DNA from: Lobosporangium transversale
Lineage: Eukaryota
DNA length: 64,000 nt
Direction: 5' to 3'
Assembly: GCF_002105155.1 (NCBI RefSeq)
Contig: NW_019029017.1
Coordinates: 124,001-188,000 of the forward strand
Below the pieces are notes generated by a model, which saw nothing but the letters and a program-made list of their open reading frames with translations, had not been told where the DNA came from and ran no database searches. Shown here in pieces: positions 8,331 to 46,084 of this stretch; the stretch's first letter is position 1, and every line of letters begins with the position of its first letter. The translations under genes and the position numbers were made by a program.

Positions 8331-8485
8331 TGTGGCTCTTCCCCTACCAAACGACACTTCTAAGCATGAGGTTGGTAGGTCTTTGATCGTGCCGTACCAG
8401 TCTTATACGATATTAATAGGTTATAAATGTATGACTTTAATGTAATATTAGTAAATAGTTTGCTTAGTTCAATAGATTTAATGGT

Positions 8486-9448
8486 TTAATCCTTGCGCTT
8501 TGATTTCCTACGCGAAGGCCTCTTGTTGGTGCTTGATAAAACTTCTTCTAATATTGACAAGCGAATTGCACTATCCGGAATACCATGCGGATTTGCTTTG
8601 GCTGCTGAGATGACGTTGCTTGTCGCAAATTCCTTATCCAGTTCATTTCTCTTCTGGCCGTTACCATCGTTCACACTATCATTATTATTCTTAACGATAT
8701 CATTACCATAATAGTCATCATTGCTATCGTCGTTATCGTCGCCATCATTGCCATCATTGCCTTCATCGTCTGGACGTCCATGGTACTTTTTCGCTGACTT
8801 GCGAGCCATCCGCAATTTCTTCCGACGAATTTTTTGCGCTTTTTGCCCTCGCTTTGACATATCGCCGTTATAATACTCATCCAATCGTTCGAAAAGGATT
8901 TTCCTTGCCAATTTGCGATTCTGAGGTAGCGATCTCGTTGCTTGACATTGAACCACAATTCCTGTCTCAAAGTGTTTCAGCTCAACATTAGAATTTGTTT
9001 TGTTGATCTTTTGACCGCCGTTGCCGCCGCCCTTGATGAATCGCTCCCGGAAATCCGTTTCAAGCAGAGTAATTTCTTTATATTGAAACGGTTCTTTTGA
9101 TGACAATGACGTGAACGATGATGCGAGCTCGTTTATGGTTGTTGATGTGGCAGAGTTTTCCTCAAATGATTCTGACTGATCCGGAGATTCCAGTTCTGTG
9201 TGGCCTATCGTTAGAGCATTGGCTTGTTTGTAGTCTTTCACGGGTATTGATGCATGATCACGACCAGGACCTGCTCGTAAGAAAGCTTCCGGGACCTGTT
9301 GGCATCGTAAGTTTGAGAATGCAGCGAGTGTTGGTGACTGGATACGGAAGAAGTGATAAGTGCCTAGCCAATATTGGCCAGCGGTAACAGCAGCACGATG
9401 CAAAAGCGTTATATAACAGTGGCCACTGCGAGCAAGCATCGTCGCCAT
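8486..9448 (-). CDS. Mitochondrial class I release-factor-family peptidyl-tRNA hydrolase (C12orf65/MTRFR-like ribosome rescue factor)
   Basis: FIKGGGNGGQKINKTNSNVELKHFETGIVVQCQATRSLPQNRKLARKIL is an RF-1 GGQ domain followed by a basic tail. No codon-recognition domain. Presequence-like N-terminus. Confidence 0.9.
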   Translation of the reverse strand: MATMLARSGHCYITLLHRAAVTAGQYWLGTYHFFRIQSPTLAAFSNLRCQQVPEAFLRAGPGRDHASIPVKDYKQANALTIGHTELESPDQSESFEENSATSTTINELASSFTSLSSKEPFQYKEITLLETDFRERFIKGGGNGGQKINKTNSNVELKHFETGIVVQCQATRSLPQNRKLARKILFERLDEYYNGDMSKRGQKAQKIRRKKLRMARKSAKKYHGRPDDEGNDGNDGDDNDDSNDDYYGNDIVKNNNDSVNDGNGQKRNELDKEFATSNVISAAKANPHGIPDSAIRLSILEEVLSSTNKRPSRRKSKRKD

Positions 9449-18098: not shown

Positions 18099-19681
18099 AC
18101 AGCAATAGCAGTGCCCGGATAGGCCGGGGGTGGGGGGATTGGGTGACCAGATTGACTACATGTATATGCACATGCGTATTGTAGATTGAGCGACTGCTAG
18201 ACACCGGTTGACTGAATGATTATGTGAACTCAAAGTTATCTTTGAACACAATTAAAATAAGACCATGCTCGTTGAAAGAACTAATTTCCTTTGCGCGTTT
18301 GCGCAGAAATCTGTTGCAGCTTAATCGAGATTTGGCTCAGTTGACATTGTTACCCAATCTGTGGGATGACCAGCTACTCCGCTGGTGTAAAATAAGAAAA
18401 TAAGCCGTCTTCATTTAGATCGGATTTGTAGGCCCACGCTCTTACGATCCAATCGTTGATTTTCTGTGTCTATTTTTTTTTGTTTGGACTGAACTTTATC
18501 TTTGTTTGCATATCTCGAAAATATTTGGCGGTTCATGCACGAGAACGGGGCAAAAATTTATTTTGTGCAAATCTCTGTTTGTTTCCTTTTTCATTGCAGC
18601 ACGAACATGCATCAGGTCATTGAGCAAACAGTTGTAGCGTCTCTTTGCTTTTCATAAATGTAGAAGCACAAGGTATCTCTCTATGCTCGTACATTTTGCA
18701 TCGCAGCGTTTCTAGTCAATTCGAATCAAACGGAACCAAGGCACAGGAACCTCCAGAAGACATTAATTCTCGCCTTCACCATGGCTACAACAAATCCCTA
18801 GGAAAGACACTCAAATGCGTCGGTATATATTTATCTCGCTTCTGTTGTAGTTTCGTATATCATGTTGTAATCCGTGTTTCATATACTTTGTCAATTACCC
18901 ATTCCACACACACCAAAAGATTGCCCTCTCTCCCGTTCTCGCTCTCCCATCCGTCCACAAGGCACGCTGAAACGAGATCACCCAACAAGGTACCGCCCAG
19001 CAAGAAGAGAGTGATTAAATAGCTTTCACTCCAAGTAATATACACAACCAACAATGCCGCTCCAATATCCCCCATTGATGCCGAAGCCTGAGAGCTAACG
19101 AATATCTCTAACACAAATGCGCTGAAGTTGTTGGAAAAAAAGAAAAAGAAAAAGGCTTTTTTCTTTCTTGACAAGGATTAATTACTTGCAAAATATACAC
19201 ACCGAGTCAAAACTCTCCATGCATTCACTAATGAAAAGTTTTTGACAAACAAGAAGATGAATAGTGGAGTAAGTGAGAATAAGATGTAGGTCTACATATC
19301 ACACCCATGGGGTATTTATTGAAGTTTTTATCATATTCATCAGAGCTTATTAAAAGCATAACTACAAGTCTATGTACGAGTAACATAATAGAGCGTGTTA
19401 ATCATAAATGTTTCCTAGGAGATGAATGTTCAGAAAAAGTATAAGACGTATATCCATTAATACGTTTGTCCATATGCACAAGAAAAGTGTTTTCTTTAAT
19501 CTTTTATGCAACGGGTGTTCTGTAAAGGATGTAACAACTGTCCCCATCTCTGTGCGAAATTATAGTTTACTACGTATCGGCCTTGCATTGAATTTTCAAC
19601 AAGGCAAGAGCCGTCGACTGTGGCTCGTTTTGAACTCAAACACACATTCTTTCTTGTGCAAGCCAACATTACGATTCCAAC

Positions 19682-38256: not shown

Positions 38257-39202
38257 AGAGTCAAGTTAAAAATAACAATATAAGAAAGAAGCTGTTTATA
38301 AAATAATAAAAATAAAAAATATGCCTATCGTTAAAGACGAATGACGAATGGAACTAACTTTGAAAAAGGAAATGAGTGGAATTTATAAATGTGTAGAAGG
38401 AAGAAAGGATGACGAGAAATCGAGGGACGATGCTACTACAAGACTTTACGACTTCAGATCATAATTATTAGGTTATTGGGGGATGAGAAACATGATAGTG
38501 CAAGAAATTTGGGCGAAATGATCTCTGATACTCTTTCTTTTATAGATTTAAAAGAATATAAAAAATGTGATAATTGTTTTTCCTAATTCCTTCCTATTAC
38601 CCCCCTTTTTCTTTTCTTTTTTTTCGACTAGGGCTGTGGGTGATTGAGGGCGTTATTCCTCTACTGAACCCTGGATTGTTTATTTTTTATTTTTTGAAAA
38701 AGCGTCAATGGGTTTGAGGATAAGAGTGGGCATGGGAAATAAATATGATATATAATAATATATTTATACAAACATGTATTTGTATATTTGTATAAATGTA
38801 TCTCTTGAGCGTGTAACTGTGGACCCACTTGCTGAGTTTATTTTCTTGTTTTAATGCCAAAAATGGTATTTTTTTTTATGCTTCTAAGCGTCCATACTAG
38901 ATTATGATCATGATCATCAACCACAAGTCAAGCCATGGAGGCGACTGTGAGTACAGCCTTATCTTGTTTAGTCTTGCCTTGATGTCTCTGCAATAGCGAT
39001 ACTATCATTCAGTGAGATGGTGAAAATAAATATATATGTCAATTGACTCTTTAATGCCAGATGAACTCTGATCTAGGTTTGTGACACAAACGAATGCGAT
39101 CGTGACTATCTTTGGTCACCTTCATTTGATCATGGCTGGTGATCGCATCCATTTGAAGACACTATCATTTGGATTTGACGTTCATCGATATCGCTGCATC
39201 CT

Positions 39203-39381
39203 TTATATAGTCCGTCCCATTAAAAAACGAGACATTCCATCTATTGTAAAAAGAAGAAATGTATTAGAACACAGAAATAAATAAATAAATAAATTAACCA
39301 AGAAAAAAAAGTACTATCAGGCCAATACTTACAATTTTTTTAAGACGAAGGCCTTTCTGGACCTAGTCATGTTTGTAGTAG
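39203..39381 (-). other. Conserved intron-containing 3' module of Fanzor copy A (candidate omegaRNA and/or micro-ORF)
   Basis: Begins 9 nt after the Fanzor stop. 54/58 nt identical to 45137-45194 (+). GTAAGT...CTAAT...TAG intron at 39332-39241. Similarity resumes after the intron up to GGACTATwTA. Confidence 0.6.
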
Positions 39382-39389
39382 ATTGTGTC

Positions 39390-42300
39390 CTACTGTTGTT
39401 GCCGGCTTGTCTCTCCCCCTCCTCCTGGACCCAGCAAAGGTCCTTTCGGTGGTCTTGATCCCTCTACTCCTCCTCCTCCTTCATCTGAAAATTTCCTTTT
39501 TGTGGATCTGCTACTACCACCACCACTGCCACCACTACCTCCACCGCCGCCACTACCGCTAGAAGCTTGGCCTTGAGTTCCTCCATCCGGCGGCATATAT
39601 TTTGCAGGTCGTTTTTGCTCTCTTATCTGCAACTCACAGACCCTTGCGATGTTCTCAGCACCAACAGCATCTCGATCAAAGTATGCTTTACAATTTCGAC
39701 AGTACTTGGATCGAAAAGGAACATTCTCCAATATACTGTCACAGTGAGGCCGTGGACACTTGGCAGATGTGTAGTATTCATGACAACCTACAATGGGGTA
39801 GTCTAGAGATTTTGCCTGTTCGAGCCAGATTTAATACTCGTTAAAAAAAAGAGTCAAAAATTAAATGTCATTGATCAAAGGATTTTTTTTTTACCTTTTC
39901 AACAAGCTTCTTCATCAATATCCCATGCTTCGATACTTGCCCTCGGTTTGTCTTGAATGATCCTAGTCCAATACAGATCACCGCATTCGTATTGGCATCT
40001 CTTCTTCTTCCATTGCTTCCGCCCGCAAGCTTCAGAATTGCCTTGATCACATAATCAACCCATCCGTTCTGTGCTTTTCTATTATCCCAGCTATTCCGAA
40101 CAAACCACCCGTCATTATAGAAATCGACAAGTGCCCTATATATAGTCTCCCTATTGTCGTCACTGGTCCCAGATCCACTGCTACTACTGGCCTCAACTCC
40201 ACTGCTACTACCGGTCCCTGCTCTACAGCTACTACTGGCCCCAACCCCACTACCAGAGAAACTACCTCCAGTACTTGATGGAGCTTGATTTAGCGGCAAG
40301 CTCATATAAGCGAAATACTGTGTTAAAGTAGGCCTTGAGAATGACGGAATATTGCTTTCAATCTCTGTAATTCCTCTTCTAAGCTTTCGCCTCTCTAGCT
40401 CGCCCTGAAACTTCTTGGATGGTTTGTAAAGGTACGCTCTAGAAATCCGGAGGATCTCACGTTCGTTAGGTTTCCTTGGATCCAACTTTGCAATTGTCAT
40501 CGAGTACCTCTCGCCTGGATCGATCCCAATGATAATGGTACTTTCGGGGGGAGGGCATGCTGCCTGGGTGTCATATTTAACTTCTACATTCTCGAGGAGA
40601 CGGGATCTCTGCTTCCAGTTGATCTCACGCCGGGGACTGGGACTCACCGGGGACAGTGGATTTGTGCTCGATGTACCTTCTTCAGCTGCTTCTTCTCCCT
40701 CGTCGCCATCTAAGAATGGTTCATCAGCTTCCAGCAAGTCAATATCGCTGATACCCAGCAAGATATCGTCATCTTCATTTCCGTCGTCGTCTCCATCATC
40801 ACCACCATCACCTGCACCATGGCCTGAAGACGAGGATCCCTGCTGAGCACTTGAAGAAGCCTGGACTGCTTGAGATCTTTGAGTATCCGAAGGTTGGGCA
40901 GCTTGCGAACCTCTACCTCTTTTTTGCTTCGATGTGTCATAGGCAAGAAGTGTTAGGGTAAGGCCGTTTGTAAAGAACGATGTCCGTAGTTTCCTTCTAG
41001 GACCATCATCAGATTGCAGTCCAACGTCCTTGTATCCTTTCAAGGAAAACAGTTCCTGCAACAATATCCCCTTGTGGTTAAGGATCTTGTCCTCCGCAGC
41101 CCCCTTGGTACTCATGTTTAGTTCCAACAATTGGACTATTTCCTCTCGAACTGTTGGGTTAGACCATAATATATCCAGGAGACAGGCTTCCGTTAGGCAA
41201 AGAGACCGAGGCGAGAAAGCAGACGTAGGGAAATCCAGATATTTTTTGGCAGTTGCATTTTGCTCAAAAAAGAATTGGATGGAACTTCTTCCATCGCCTG
41301 GAATATCTATGTCAAACTAGACATTATATTGAAGAAATGATTAGGAACATTTCTATAAACATATTATAAGATAACCTCAAAATATTATAATATTATATTT
41401 ACCTGCGCATTCCGATAGTGAGACCTTAGCGCTGCTTGAACAGGGACCATGACCATCCGAGACGACCTGCTGATCACCAAATCGGGATAGATCTGGTTTA
41501 AAGGACCAAGCCCTGTCTTTGCATAGAAGTTTTCGTATGCTTTGAGCTGGGACGGCTTGGCTACGTTCCCTTCGCCTTTTTTCTTCACTTCCCTGCTATA
41601 CCTAGATAATGGACTCATCACTCCGTGATACAACAACGCAGCAAGGCCGTAAATAAAGTCCCTGCTATCAAGAACTTCATCTAGGAGTTGTGGTGTTGTA
41701 AATAGTAGGTGTATCTTTGCTTAAGGGGCAAAAAGATAGACACAAAATCAGGAAAGGACAGTACAAAGAGTGTCAACAAGAATAACAAGAGAAAATAAAG
41801 ACAAACAACCTTGACGACAAACAGCGCCATAGGATGTCGAAAGAGAAAGATGGGAGCTTTATAGGTTAGCTCACAAACTGAGTTCCTGGACGGCAAATGC
41901 TTGTTGTGAAAAGGGGAAAAGATAATAGCAAGAACAAGACGTATGGGGAAAACTAAAGACTTTATTGAGGAAGAAGTTCTTTGGCTTTTATAACTTAGCC
42001 TACAGGCCTGACTGTGGTGCTTTCTAGGTGAGGTGGACTCACCGATAGCTTAAGGCTTTGCACAAAGGTTCTTTTAACTGTGGATCGACAGAATGTCCCG
42101 ATTAGTAGATACAAAGTAAAAATAAAATAGTTATAATTAATTTATATAACTATTAATGACCAGCCACAACAGTGGGAGATCAGCTGGATTGGATGGCCCA
42201 GTGGTAAGCAGGTTATCGATCCACAAGGCGCAGGCCCAGAAAGCTTGAATCCGTGCCTCGTTCAACATTTTAATAAACGATTGAATGAGCCCTTGAATTG

Positions 42301-43828
42301 TTGCAGCAAGTTGCTCGGGATTGAGATTGGGATCGGAAGTAGAGTCCAGCTTGGCAACTACACATGTCTTTAACGTGCCCAGAGTTAATGCAACAGTGGG
42401 GTGGGCCCTCTTCAACCGTCGGTCCTCGGCAGTAGCCTCCTTCACTTTCCTGGTCTTATCAGTCTTTCTGATATACTTGGCCTTCCCTTTGTTCTTCTTT
42501 TTTTTCTTCTTTTCCTCCTTAACCTCCTCTTCTTTGTCATCCTCTTTTTTTTCCTTTTCCTTTTTTTGGGGGACTTTCTTTGACGGCTGGAGCTGACGGG
42601 ACGGTCGTGTTGTTTGCAGTTGGTCAGGTCATATTTCTTAGGGGAAAGTTCCTTTTTCTGGGTAGGGAAAAAAGGCCGATAGCGATTCGGCTTTGCGCGT
42701 TTAGGGATATAGAATCTAATTAGGAACAACAATGTCAAGGGTTAGATGACTTTTTTTTTTTTTTTTTTGTATATGCTTTGGAAAATGTTCGTTTGAAGGA
42801 GCTTACCTGGGTTGAGGTTGATTATTTTTATTCTGGTACCTAGCAGATATCGCAGTCCTCATTCTATCATGGTAATGAAGGAATCTTTCAGCGGTTGGTT
42901 GCTGTGAAGCCTGGGTTTGGATCCTACCAAAGAAAACATTAATTGAATGGTCAAACTGGCCTTCTGCAGGAGTTCGACGGCTACGGGCATGGACCTCACG
43001 AACATATGATACCGTCAACTTTTCGGCATCAGTGTCAGTGAGCGCAGAGATAATCTCAGCATTTGTAGCAAGACCAAAGGTTGGGATATTTGGGGTGTAA
43101 TCGTTATCGGATATAATGCCATAGACCAGGAGTTGACTGTCCCTTGAAAACCCAAGGGCTTGCAGGACCTCTTGTTTCTCATAGAGTGCAAACATGTGAT
43201 GGCGACGAGGGATTGGACGAAGAACTCTTTTTATAGAAGGATAGATGAGAAGGTCAGAGTCCCCAGACACAGCGATACTGGTTGGTGTACATTTGGCGGC
43301 AATACACACATCAGCCTCATTTCTACAATGGCAAATCACATAGTTATTGTATCGACCGAATGGCGCCGCGAGCTCCCTCTTCTCGTTATGACTGAATGTG
43401 AAGAGCTGTCGAAGATTCTTTTTAATGGCAATCATATGGCTTCGAGATTCCCATTTGCCTTCATTGGACTTGGTTTCCATGTTGGCTATGAGCGTATCGA
43501 GTTTTGCATCCGCTGCTGTACGCTTAGCATCTCGGTCCCTATAGGCGCGCGTTTTTTCTTCGCAGCGAGGCCCATCAATGTGTATCGTCACTGTGGCAAG
43601 AGGACCAAAGATCTTTCGAATGATACTAGCCATAGCATGGCCGCAGGCAGTGAAAGAACTCTGCCGGCTGAATCTCCTTAGGATGATATTATGTATATCG
43701 CTGTGGAAAGTGCCAAGCAGATCCAGCTCAAAAGATGAATGGGGTTCAGCAGCAAGCTCATGTACATCAATCTCCTTTGGTGGCAGGCCTCTCCTTGAAA
43801 GGTATGAATAGAGTCCTTTAATACCCAT
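39390..43828 (-). CDS. FEN1/XPG-like PIN+H3TH nuclease joined to a Fanzor/TnpB-like RuvC-ZnF nuclease (interrupted by one frameshift and a 485-nt insertion)
   Basis: Coding segments 43828-42807, 42715-42172, 41686-41403, 41316-39895 and 39815-39390. PIN motifs: MGIKGL, ELD, IDG, EADVC, SGDSDLL, NDYTPNIPTFG. RuvC-I IIGIDPG. RuvC-II ICIGLG with downstream HEYYTSAKC. ZnF CPRPHC...CRNC. RuvC-III DRDAVGAENI. Confidence 0.85.
40170..40265 (-). repeat. Imperfect ~24-bp tandem repeat encoding a Gly/Ser linker inside the Fanzor RuvC region
   Basis: Recurrent ccactgctactac(t/c)gg units. Protein SGVGASSSCRAGTGSSSGVEASSSSGSG. Confidence 0.7.
41687..42170. mobile_element. 484-bp non-autonomous insertion (MITE-like), copy 1, inside the Fanzor ORF
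   Basis: Ends GTTGTGG...CCACAAC (7-bp perfect inverted repeat) flanked by a duplicated A (equivalently an AG direct repeat). Removing 485 nt restores in-frame ADLPLLDEVLDSRDF. Second copy at 45321-45788. Confidence 0.75.
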
Positions 43829-44050
43829 CTAGAGAAAGTATAGTGTAAAACAGTGCAAGCAATGTTGGTTTAAGCGGCTAAAGATTGAAGCTGAAGTTGT
43901 TAGAGTAGAGATAGTTTACCTTTAAGAAAGCAAAAAGTTATGATCTGTGAGGGGATGAGGGTGTAAGAGTACGGGTGAGAGCGCGAAAGCAATGTCGTTG
44001 TAAAATGAGAGAGAGAGAGGGAAAAGAGAGGAGGCAGGACGTATTTATAG
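43829..44050 (-). promoter_or_regulatory. Pol II core promoter and 5' UTR intron of the PIN-Fanzor gene
   Basis: TATAAATA at ~44049-44042 (minus) followed by a CT-rich tract. GTAAAC donor at ~43919 and TCTAG acceptor abutting the ATG at 43828. Confidence 0.55.
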
Positions 44051-44214
44051 GTGTATGAAAGAGAACGAAACAAAAGGCTGATGAATTTGGAACAACTCGA
44101 AACAATAAGATTCTCAGCGACAAGTTTTAACTTTTTGGATTTCGAGTATTGTTTACAGTCTTCTCCAATCATCTACATTTACCAAATCAAGCCTTCGCCA
44201 TGACAATCAACAAG

Positions 44215-44922
44215 AAATAAAAAAAACAGACTTCCTTACGTCCCCCCTCGGTATGTGTATCTGTCTGAACACGTCCTAACTGACATCCTCTCGACAATCC
44301 TTCCAAGGCTGCAGTGTTTGAATGTGTACAGGGAACAAAAGAGGTCTAGATACAGGCTCTCTTTGTGACATTGAAGGAGATCGCATGTTTCATGGCTATC
44401 AAGACAAGGTACCCCTACAGGCACAAGACAAAGGTATAACTCGGTTCAAACTCAAAGGAACGATTTTACCAATGGCCTTGTTCTGAATCCACTTGCCTAT
44501 GACACAGTCCAGACGAAGAGACAGCAGCAGTCTGACGTAGATGAAGAAGATCTCAGCCAGGAATTGAAACTTTCTCAAGGATTCCTTAACACGGCGTGTT
44601 TTAAAGGCAGCCGGTGAAGACCTGACAGATGAAGACTACGCAAACATAAACTGGAAGAGGAGCCCCAAACTTCTTGAAAACGTTGGACTCATATTCCATG
44701 AGCTAGGGCGATGCTCATCTGCAAATACCACAACTACCGTCTAATGCGATCCTGGTATTGTAATGCCCTTACGTTTTCTTCGCTAGACCGTCACAACCCT
44801 GACCTGCGTCAAACGGTGAAGGTGAGAAGTAGGCTCGTCAACAGCCTGTGTGTCTTATATGCGTTGCACCAATGCTCACTGATAGGTTGGGAGGAAAGAC
44901 ACCAAGCCGGCAACAACAATAG
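44215..44922 (+). pseudogene. Decayed Fanzor paralog (copy B), divergent from copy A
   Basis: Frameshifted peptides collinear with copy A: PRYVYLSEHVLTDIL vs PRSLCLTEACLLDIL; TNGLVLNPLAYDT vs TNGLTLTLLAYDT; INWKRSPKLLENV vs INWKQRSRLLENV; V*CDPG vs IGIDPG; terminal SRQQQ* in both. Confidence 0.85.
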
Positions 44923-44959
44923 GATATGATCAGTTGCATATTTCACAGTACACGTGTTA

Positions 44960-45134
44960 CATGAAAATTTATAATACAGACATACAGTACTAACAGCTCT
45001 ATGCCCCGAGACAAACTTGCAGTTTTATTTTGATACAAATTTGGATAAATGCCCCATGGATGTGATGTGTGAACCCACATCCTATTCTCACTTCTGCTCC
45101 CTGGTTACTATTTGTCTGTCTAAAATTTTTCATG
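44960..45134. mobile_element. ~175-bp MITE-like insertion with ~30-bp imperfect terminal inverted repeats
   Basis: CATGAAAATTTATAATACAGACA... pairs with ...TGTCTGTCTAAAATTTTTCATG. Absent from the equivalent position of copy A. Confidence 0.55.
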
Positions 45135-45136
45135 AG

Positions 45137-45276
45137 CTACTACAAACATGACTAGGTCGGGAAAGGCCTTCGTCTTGAAAAAGTTGTAAGTATTAGCTCG
45201 ACAGTGCTTTCTTGACTAATCTCTTTATTTCTATGCTTGGTCTAGATGGTGTTTTTTTATGGGGAGGACTATTTAG
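45137..45276 (+). other. Conserved intron-containing 3' module of Fanzor copy B
   Basis: Inverted copy of 39381-39203. Intron 45186-45245 (GTAAGT...GACTAAT...CTAG). Spliced ORF MTRSGKAFVLKKLWCFFMGRTI*. Confidence 0.6.
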
Positions 45277-45320
45277 ACAACATATAGACCCCACATATCT
45301 TAATCATAATAAATTGGTTT

Positions 45321-45788
45321 GGTGGCATTGTTGTAAAAAATATCTTTGCTTAAGGGACAGAAAGATAGACACAATCAGGAAAAGGCAGGACAAAGGGCGT
45401 CAACAAGATTAACAAGAGAAAATAGAGTCAAATAACCTTGACTACAAACAGCACCATAGAATGTCAAAAGATGGGAGCTTTATAGGTGAGCTCACAAACT
45501 GAGTTACCGGAAGACAAATGCTTGTTGTGAAAAGGGGAAAAAGATAAATGGCAAGATGAACTGCAGGTGAAGAATAAGACATATGGGGAAAACTGAAGAC
45601 TTTATTAAGAAGGAAGTTTCTTTGGCTTTTATACTCGGTAGCTTCTTTGGCTTTTATACTCGGTAGCTTCTAGGTGAGGCGGACCCGCCTATGACTACAA
45701 AGGCTTTGCGCAAAGATTCCTTTAAGCTGGTTCGACAGATTAGTGGATACAAAATAAACTGAAATTAACTTTAATGACCAGTCACACC
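45321..45788. mobile_element. Copy 2 of the 484-bp insertion family
   Basis: Collinear direct repeat of 41687-42170 (e.g. aaagatgggagctttataggt.agctcacaaactgagtt and caaatgcttgttgtgaaaaggggaaaa). Contains an internal 25-bp tandem duplication at 45618-45667. Confidence 0.8.
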
Positions 45789-46084
45789 ACTTGCAATAAC
45801 AAGCGAGTCAATTGGCTGCCAATACATTTAAGAGTATTCAAAAAATATAAGGGATCGCGACCAAATGGAACGGGCTATACTGATCATATTAACAAAAATG
45901 TGCTTTATTTTAATTTATTTTTTTTGAATGAAGTAGTAGGATTTCAAAAAAAAATAAAAATAAAAAAAGTTGTCCTGTACATTTCTAATGACGAATGGGA
46001 AAGATGAAAATGGGTACTTCAAGCTGTATTAAGTTCATTCTCAACTAATGTAAATCCTTCATGTAAAATACAGTAGAATAGACC

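Follow-up and report, generated by a model that had tools for sequence, protein, structure and literature searches.

The window, the whole stretch of 64,000 nucleotides of Lobosporangium transversale DNA analysed here, carries a multi-copy transposable element. Within it, a spliced gene joins an XPG/FEN1-like exon to a Fanzor1 protein and is followed by a short, structured element end that an intron divides in two (Table 1). Proteins of the gene match L. transversale proteins at 97-100%, and the protein relatives looked up (10 and 4) are all from Mortierellaceae. The copy of the gene in the window is broken, having a frameshift near 42.6 kb as well as a 482-bp insert.

Table 1. Features of the element, its Fanzor gene, and the two intron-split blocks (window positions)
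Feature	Position	Strand	Evidence
Multi-copy element with imperfect terminal inverted repeats, TA-flanked	39206..45879	.	contig ends, loose ends, depth
Spliced gene, XPG/FEN1-like N-terminal exon and Fanzor1	39390..43828	-	PF07282, profile, fold, X5 intron joints
Exon 1 of predicted omegaRNA (3' UTR)	39333..39389	-	fold, covariation, covariance model
Stem-loop 1	39368-39344	-	fold; covariation
A-rich linker	39343-39334	-	fold
U2-type intron, 92 nt, GTAAGT, CTAAT 27 nt from end, TAG	39241..39332	-	X5 skip; signals
Exon 2, predicted stem-loop 2; 3' arm is terminal inverted repeat and TA duplication	39206..39240	-	fold z -2.5 alone; basal pairs 0.96 in spliced ensemble
Predicted guide, host flank, copy-variable	39191..39205	-	differing flanks past 39205-39207 in X5, X1, X8; SpuFz1 analogy
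482-bp insert private to window copy, TG..CA ends, 4-bp duplication	41690..42171	.	skipped by majority contigs in X1, X3, X5
Broken, deleted Fanzor remnant of another subfamily, copy-1-like C-terminus (copy 2)	44200..44922	+	best matches P0078, P0132, P0142, P0155
Relic second scaffold, 60-nt intron (45186-45245), shortened stem 2, fixed downstream sequence	45137..45274	+	54/58 match
Other terminal inverted repeat (element 5' end relative to Fanzor gene)	45864..45879	+	14/16 vs 39206-39221; loose ends 45880-45881

Judged by its nearest solved relatives, the protein is of Fanzor1 type and a putative RNA-guided nuclease. A profile of 94 relatives has SpuFz1 as its first match (E 2e-16). The fold comparison rests on a predicted model (pLDDT 78.7) of the relative P0017, which is 33% identical to the window exon; its top seven Foldseek matches are SpuFz1, PpFz1, and GtFz1 (E 1e-13), and SpuFz1 is the best match of the Lobosporangium family in both profile and fold. 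The RuvC D-E-D triad is complete, with GIDPG in the exon at 39868-41316, and with the E (of HEYYTSAKC) and the RuvC-III D (of RDAVG) both encoded by the last exon; the catalytic E, which directly precedes the zinc finger, is invariant in 19 of 19 alignment rows. The zinc finger is TnpB-type (TNB) and scores 29.8 bits for PF07282, above the cut-off of 26.3. No relative of the Fanzor protein was found in prokaryote and viral collections; four viral matches to a DNA pattern lie away from any Fanzor and are due to chance, and a PDB search with P0009 alone returned only glycine-rich noise.

Spliced contigs of run X5 skip the coding introns at the joints 39814/39894 and 42715/42807, and the XPG/FEN1-like exon (42803-43828, minus strand) is joined to exon 2 by such a contig. 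An XPG-like exon also lies upstream of Fanzor in the relatives L008 (192-1037) and L009 (288-1088). The predicted proteins of the XPG-fused family have 1,050-1,190 amino acids, outside the 600-700 amino acids without an extra nuclease domain that are a described tendency, not a defining rule. The literature passages searched do not mention an XPG front domain on Fanzor, and a weak search for longer homologues found none. By its features the XPG/FEN1-like domain is nearest to giant-virus XPG proteins. L008 has a second, more distant Fanzor-like zinc-finger exon (8424-8570), 4 kb downstream of the first.

Contigs from four of the eight listed sequencing runs (X1, X3, X5, X8) were aligned to the window. 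None of the listed runs is recorded as RNA. X1, X3, and X8 are DNA; X5, apparently from another strain with its own variants, is taken for probable RNA on the ground that three GT..AG introns are skipped in it and in no other run. The contigs show neither strand nor RNA ends. Unique DNA contigs stop at 39233 and restart at 45853, loose contig ends cluster at 39205-39207 and 45880-45881, and single contigs inside the element are about 10-25 times deeper than the flank (186.8 against 9.9 in X1), giving a copy number of about 20; no single contig spans the whole element. The summed depth at the element end (about 90-fold) counts overlapping contigs together and gives no usable copy number. The two ends are inverted repeats with 14 of 16 bases matching and TA outermost. 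The element thereby shows the TA duplication and the inverted ends of Tc1/mariner-type TIR transposons, but the DDE transposase typical of these was found neither in the element nor in the 28 other window ORFs scanned. From the deep contigs, the loose ends, and the matching inverted ends it follows that the two Fanzor copies named in the initial annotation, here copy 1 (the gene) and copy 2 (the remnant), lie within one element.

Several further observations concern the element as a whole. All five X5 contigs with listed loose ends at 45880-45881 share one more base past the TA, which suggests a target motif longer than TA. The same 9-mer is present at 39257-39265 and 45821-45829, in each case 51-52 nt in from the end of the element; 168 of 20,000 matched control windows do equally well. 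The 3' copy of the 9-mer overlaps the branch point of the intron and is possibly a subterminal transposase signal hidden there. The 482-bp insert is 77% like 45341-45758. The pieces 41690-42171 and 45329-45790, which are 77% alike and which we take to be solo-LTR-like, have separate standing: the first breaks the gene in the window copy only and the second is a fixed part of the element. X8 copies over 39323-39420 differ at 19 of 98 letters, and the changes listed are all G to A, a one-sided decay that presumably resembles methylation- or RIP-driven mutation.

Behind the gene, the 58-nt block (39381-39324, minus strand) matches 45137-45194 at 54 of 58 positions, as first described, and the intron signals reported for both copies are present: GTAAGT donors at 39332 and 45186, CTAAT, and TAG, with intron lengths of 92 nt in copy 1 and 60 nt in copy 2. 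The first hairpin folds as had been drawn, and two of the four block differences fall in its loop. By itself this hairpin is within chance (z -1.2 and -0.9), since 28 and 44 of 200 shuffles fold equally well.

The 92-nt intron of copy 1 is spliced in X5. A single contig of 519 nt (depth 241.5), in this one run, covers 39817-39333, continues at 39240-39207, and skips exactly the 92 nt from GT to AG (39241-39332), which is the junction 39333/39240 that the initial annotation proposed to look for. The contig has 34 letters on the short side of the joint and reaches from the final coding exon as far as the end of the element. None of the three X5 joints is present in the DNA runs X1, X3, and X8, and an intron-less strain is an unlikely source of this one because X5 has three exact skips. 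The intron signals resemble those of the gene's coding introns; a search of Rfam gave no match at E<=1 save one chance hit elsewhere, hence no match to a group I intron. The X5 contig of the main family is spliced, with the retained form almost absent among those listed, and other family members in X5 are unspliced or have the donor deleted (depths 8.9, 16.8, 25.6, 54.1, 102.8, and 433). The deepest end contig of X5 (433) belongs to a single-copy variant over 39205-39265 with a 2-nt deletion (DNA depth 8.9), which keeps the 3' part of the intron, and another member without the donor reaches a depth of 102.8. Such deep unspliced variants are possibly highly expressed ghost loci.

Once spliced, the RNA measures 92 nt from the stop to the final TA, or 72 nt when counted from stem 1. 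In its predicted fold, stems of 8 and 14 pairs are separated by an A-rich linker of 10 nt, and the second stem closes on the last A. The spliced end of copy 1 is beyond shuffled sequences (z -3.2 for the 72 nt and -2.6 for the 92 nt). In the predicted folds, a two-stem plan with a short linker in about 60-75 nt is reached solely after splicing, the exon-1 base 39333 pairs with the final A, and the two exons meet at the base of stem 2. Basal pairing of stem 2 in copy 1 is predicted at 0.96 in the spliced form versus 0.04 in the retained form, in which the linker becomes about 100 nt, and is higher after splicing in six of six loci (0.07 versus 0.00 in L012). The loss on retention is a generic effect, because shuffled introns with the same ends reduce the pairing about equally; a history in which blocking of stem 2 shaped the intron is not supported, the real intron being no stronger than shuffled ones.

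The predicted scaffold (39389-39206) occupies the stretch from the stop codon to the element's 3' end, taking in the terminal repeat together with the target duplication. In copy 1 a conserved scaffold is followed by a variable flank, with the expected sharp boundary at 39205-39207. The guide would start near the place first proposed, at 39205 rather than 39203 to judge from the TA-closed stem. A search with the putative guides of seven loci against the window and 12 related loci, a tiny search space, found no convincing target. For copy 1, the proposal of an omegaRNA-like scaffold at the 3' end of the element, split by a spliceosomal intron, is thus supported, with the intron seen spliced in X5.

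The proposal that copy 2 is an independent Fanzor copy, and a second system with its own variable guide, does not survive. It sits inside the same multi-copy element, and its coding remnant has stops and frameshifts relative to P0078, P0132, P0142, and P0155, the members of its nearest subfamily, which is also from L. transversale and whose ends differ. The RuvC-II and zinc-finger part is missing, and the likeness to copy 1 is confined to the last codons and the block. Only in copy 1 does the block directly follow the stop, as had been stated for both; in copy 2 there are 214 nt between the stop (44920-44922) and the block, and 45031-45136 within this gap is a dispersed repeat 77% like window 19228-19333. 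In X1, a contig (44889-45340, depth 181) crosses the block of copy 2 and continues into a fixed flank, in place of the variable flank expected behind a scaffold. An X5 contig (44687-45349) retains the intron, and the junction 45185/45246, also sought, is not among the joints listed. The spliced fold of copy 2 is within shuffles (z -0.6). The best reading of copy 2 is a chimeric relic that travels inside the element, at most a fixed-guide cassette. As the copies are not independent, their comparison does not demonstrate conservation; conservation of the intron position is instead borne out by relatives.

A metagenome scan yielded 12 such loci from 301 pattern matches, with 44-81% identity in the zinc-finger exon; eight of the 12 come from one data set, L002 and L003 are one family, and taxonomy was assigned from the protein alone. 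Six of the 12 (L002, L003, L004, L006, L009, and L012) have, behind the gene, a hairpin differing in sequence from that of the window, an A-rich linker ending TT, and, at a distance of 26-66 nt from the stop, a GTAAGT donor; the gene end that precedes it in L012 is frameshifted. Going by sequence signals, as for copy 2, five of these hold a whole intron of 78-106 nt with unalignable interiors, and L006 is cut off. The linker-plus-donor pattern has six matches among 137 donor words, and in the window four, two of them off target; it was written after the loci had been inspected and is descriptive only. In L001, the closest relative, the spliced junction is present as genomic DNA and a donor lies 14 nt further on; L005 has the hairpin and linker without an intron, the layout is absent from L007, L008, and L010, and L011 is truncated. 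L002-L004 have another donor 6-12 nt into stem 2, with a branch point and a first AG 81-96 nt on, pointing to a second intron whose AAG acceptor would leave a last exon of 7 nt. L002 and L003 are 94% alike, and their match ends at the same end motif. Two relatives lacking the usual layout share a 31-nt stretch 360-530 nt behind the stop (L007:945-975 and L010:1902-1931).

Pairing of stem 1 is kept in 91.7% of cells, with three of the eight pairs changed on both sides (six rows, five distinct); only two of 500 shuffles are as high, and slid controls give 28-56%. Stem 1 therefore covaries, as the covariation check had been meant to establish, in a small set of related rows from which the structure was also drawn. 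A covariance model found three further matches in 49,286 bases (L012, E 0.004; L009; L005), all untrained and in the expected place; the scores of L009 and L005 are at background level, so that only their position counts, and L006 was missed. The exon-1 U is predicted to pair with the terminal A after splicing in copy 1, L004, and L009, and weakly in L002/L003, and the spliced folds of L002, L003, and L012 are not beyond shuffles.

The closest known system is SpuFz1 with its element Spu-1 from Spizellomyces punctatus (PMC10432273, PMC3627910; PDB 8GKH, 9CEU-9CEZ). As described there, Spu-1 is likewise a TA-flanked inverted-repeat element without its own transposase, and has a conserved region from the stop to the 3' repeat, two stems with a short linker, a TA-closed scaffold, and a variable flank. 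A single ORF makes up the 2.1-kb Spu-1, whose 75-nt scaffold is colinear with the DNA, whereas the Lobosporangium element has 6.2-6.7 kb, a gene with introns and an XPG-like front, imperfect 16-bp repeats, and an intron-split scaffold. The 3' duplication has been reported to belong to Fanzor1 scaffolds (PMC10711439, PMC13565253). PpFz1 from Parasitella parasitica (PMC11423790; PDB 9CF0-9CF3), also a Fanzor1 of an early-diverging fungus, is described with the same plan: a 7-bp stem 1, a short linker, and a minimal stem 2 of four pairs like that of L002-L004 after removal of both introns. However, the PpFz1 RNA was defined by yeast expression and is described as continuous, and the passages found do not mention splicing (PMC11423790). 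The published PpFz1 omegaRNA (PMC11423790 Table S3) has a 5' splice-site-like word in its second stem, as does L001; in Parasitella itself this RNA may be joined by splicing to an exon further downstream.

Two other systems combine introns with such nucleases. In IStrons, which are IS605/IS607 elements with a group I intron, one transposon end is both intron and guide RNA, but there the self-splicing of a ribozyme cuts the scaffold away from the guide, which makes splicing and guide mutually exclusive (PMC10690162). In Lobosporangium the intron is spliceosomal and lies inside the scaffold, to which both exons belong, and splicing would build it; the element is not an IStron. Intron-containing Fanzor genes such as CrFNuc (PMC10530073) have acquired host-like introns and a guide from the 3' UTR, but the passages found deal with the intron density of loci and genes and describe none inside the guide RNA. 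A term search does not find 'intron' in the accessible text of PMC10432273, PMC11423790, PMC10711439, PMC3627910, or PMC13434818. The full-text literature searched has no spliced Fanzor guide and no paper on Fanzor together with Mortierell-.

The spliced element end is quite probably a Fanzor guide (omega) RNA. Since its intron is cut out in the RNA-like run and recurs in relatives, the guide is likely finished by the host splicing machinery. RNA polymerase II would read the Fanzor gene through the element end into the flank; splicing would set stems 1 and 2 within 10 nt of each other and provide the first pair of stem 2; the Fanzor protein would bind the two-stem scaffold, and trimming would leave an RNA of about 85-90 nt in which the ~15 nt of flank nearest the scaffold would direct cleavage of the empty TA site. 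Such cleavage may help the element to persist or spread, a role that has been proposed for other OMEGA systems. Where present, the intron would need removal; the intron itself is dispensable, because relatives without it at that position exist.

The intron could also be a passenger tolerated in the 3' UTR, with spliced and unspliced ends both working as omegaRNA and the intron serving as a long flexible linker. L001 and L005, which have no intron at that position, the unspliced X5 contigs of other members, and intron interiors that are not specially anti-folding all agree with this, as does the dispensability of the far part of stem 2 in the 75-nt SpuFz1 scaffold (PMC10432273). However, SpuFz1 has a linker of only 6 nt in contact with RuvC, and its protein reads the base of stem 2 (same source); retention is predicted to stretch the linker and to abolish nearly all basal pairing, and the main family is almost wholly spliced among the contigs listed. 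A passenger intron is accordingly unlikely. Slightly less likely again is an ordinary 3' UTR intron flanked by UTR or terminal hairpins with roles in mRNA control, decay, or as transposase signals, the true guide being elsewhere or lost. Hairpins beside transposon ends are common, stop and junction are 57 nt apart in copy 1, L002, and L003, which is near the distance at which 3' UTR junctions trigger mRNA decay, and the 9-mer common to both element ends overlaps the branch point. The distance from stop to donor nevertheless varies from 26 to 66 nt, hairpin pairing is kept while its sequence changes, and the position, length, two-stem layout, and TA-closed end match published Fanzor1 omegaRNAs.

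That the block is a short coding exon, with MTRS.KAFVLKK in both copies and a normal coding intron behind it, is very improbable. Three of the four block differences are synonymous in that frame, but a variant at 39358 is a stop in three X5 and four X1 contigs, copy 2 shifts frame after the intron, the frame runs into the variable flank, and the ATG is missing in L001-L004; the peptide reading is largely refuted by the stop variant, the frame change, and the loss of the ATG in relatives.

A broader reading has about an even chance of being right: in Mortierellaceae, Fanzor1 guides would be assembled by the spliceosome from two or even three exons, the last sometimes down to 7 nt, splicing would gate the passage from mRNA tail to guide, and introns would have been gained repeatedly in a 70-nt scaffold. 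Some guides taken from genomic DNA or heterologous hosts would then be incomplete, possibly that of PpFz1. A guide inferred from genomic DNA would then be open to error, a possible explanation for inactive reconstitutions. An inactive Chlamydomonas Fanzor reconstitution is mentioned in PMC10530073, and guide biogenesis of Fanzors in eukaryotes is called undetermined in PMC10690162. A guide built by splicing would be the reverse of the IStron conflict and would give a handle on this biogenesis, and the window adds to Fanzor1 a new family fused to XPG, whose predicted minimal scaffold is ready for use. A scaffold that exists solely after splicing would tie a bacterial-derived RNA-guided nuclease to RNA polymerase II and the spliceosome.
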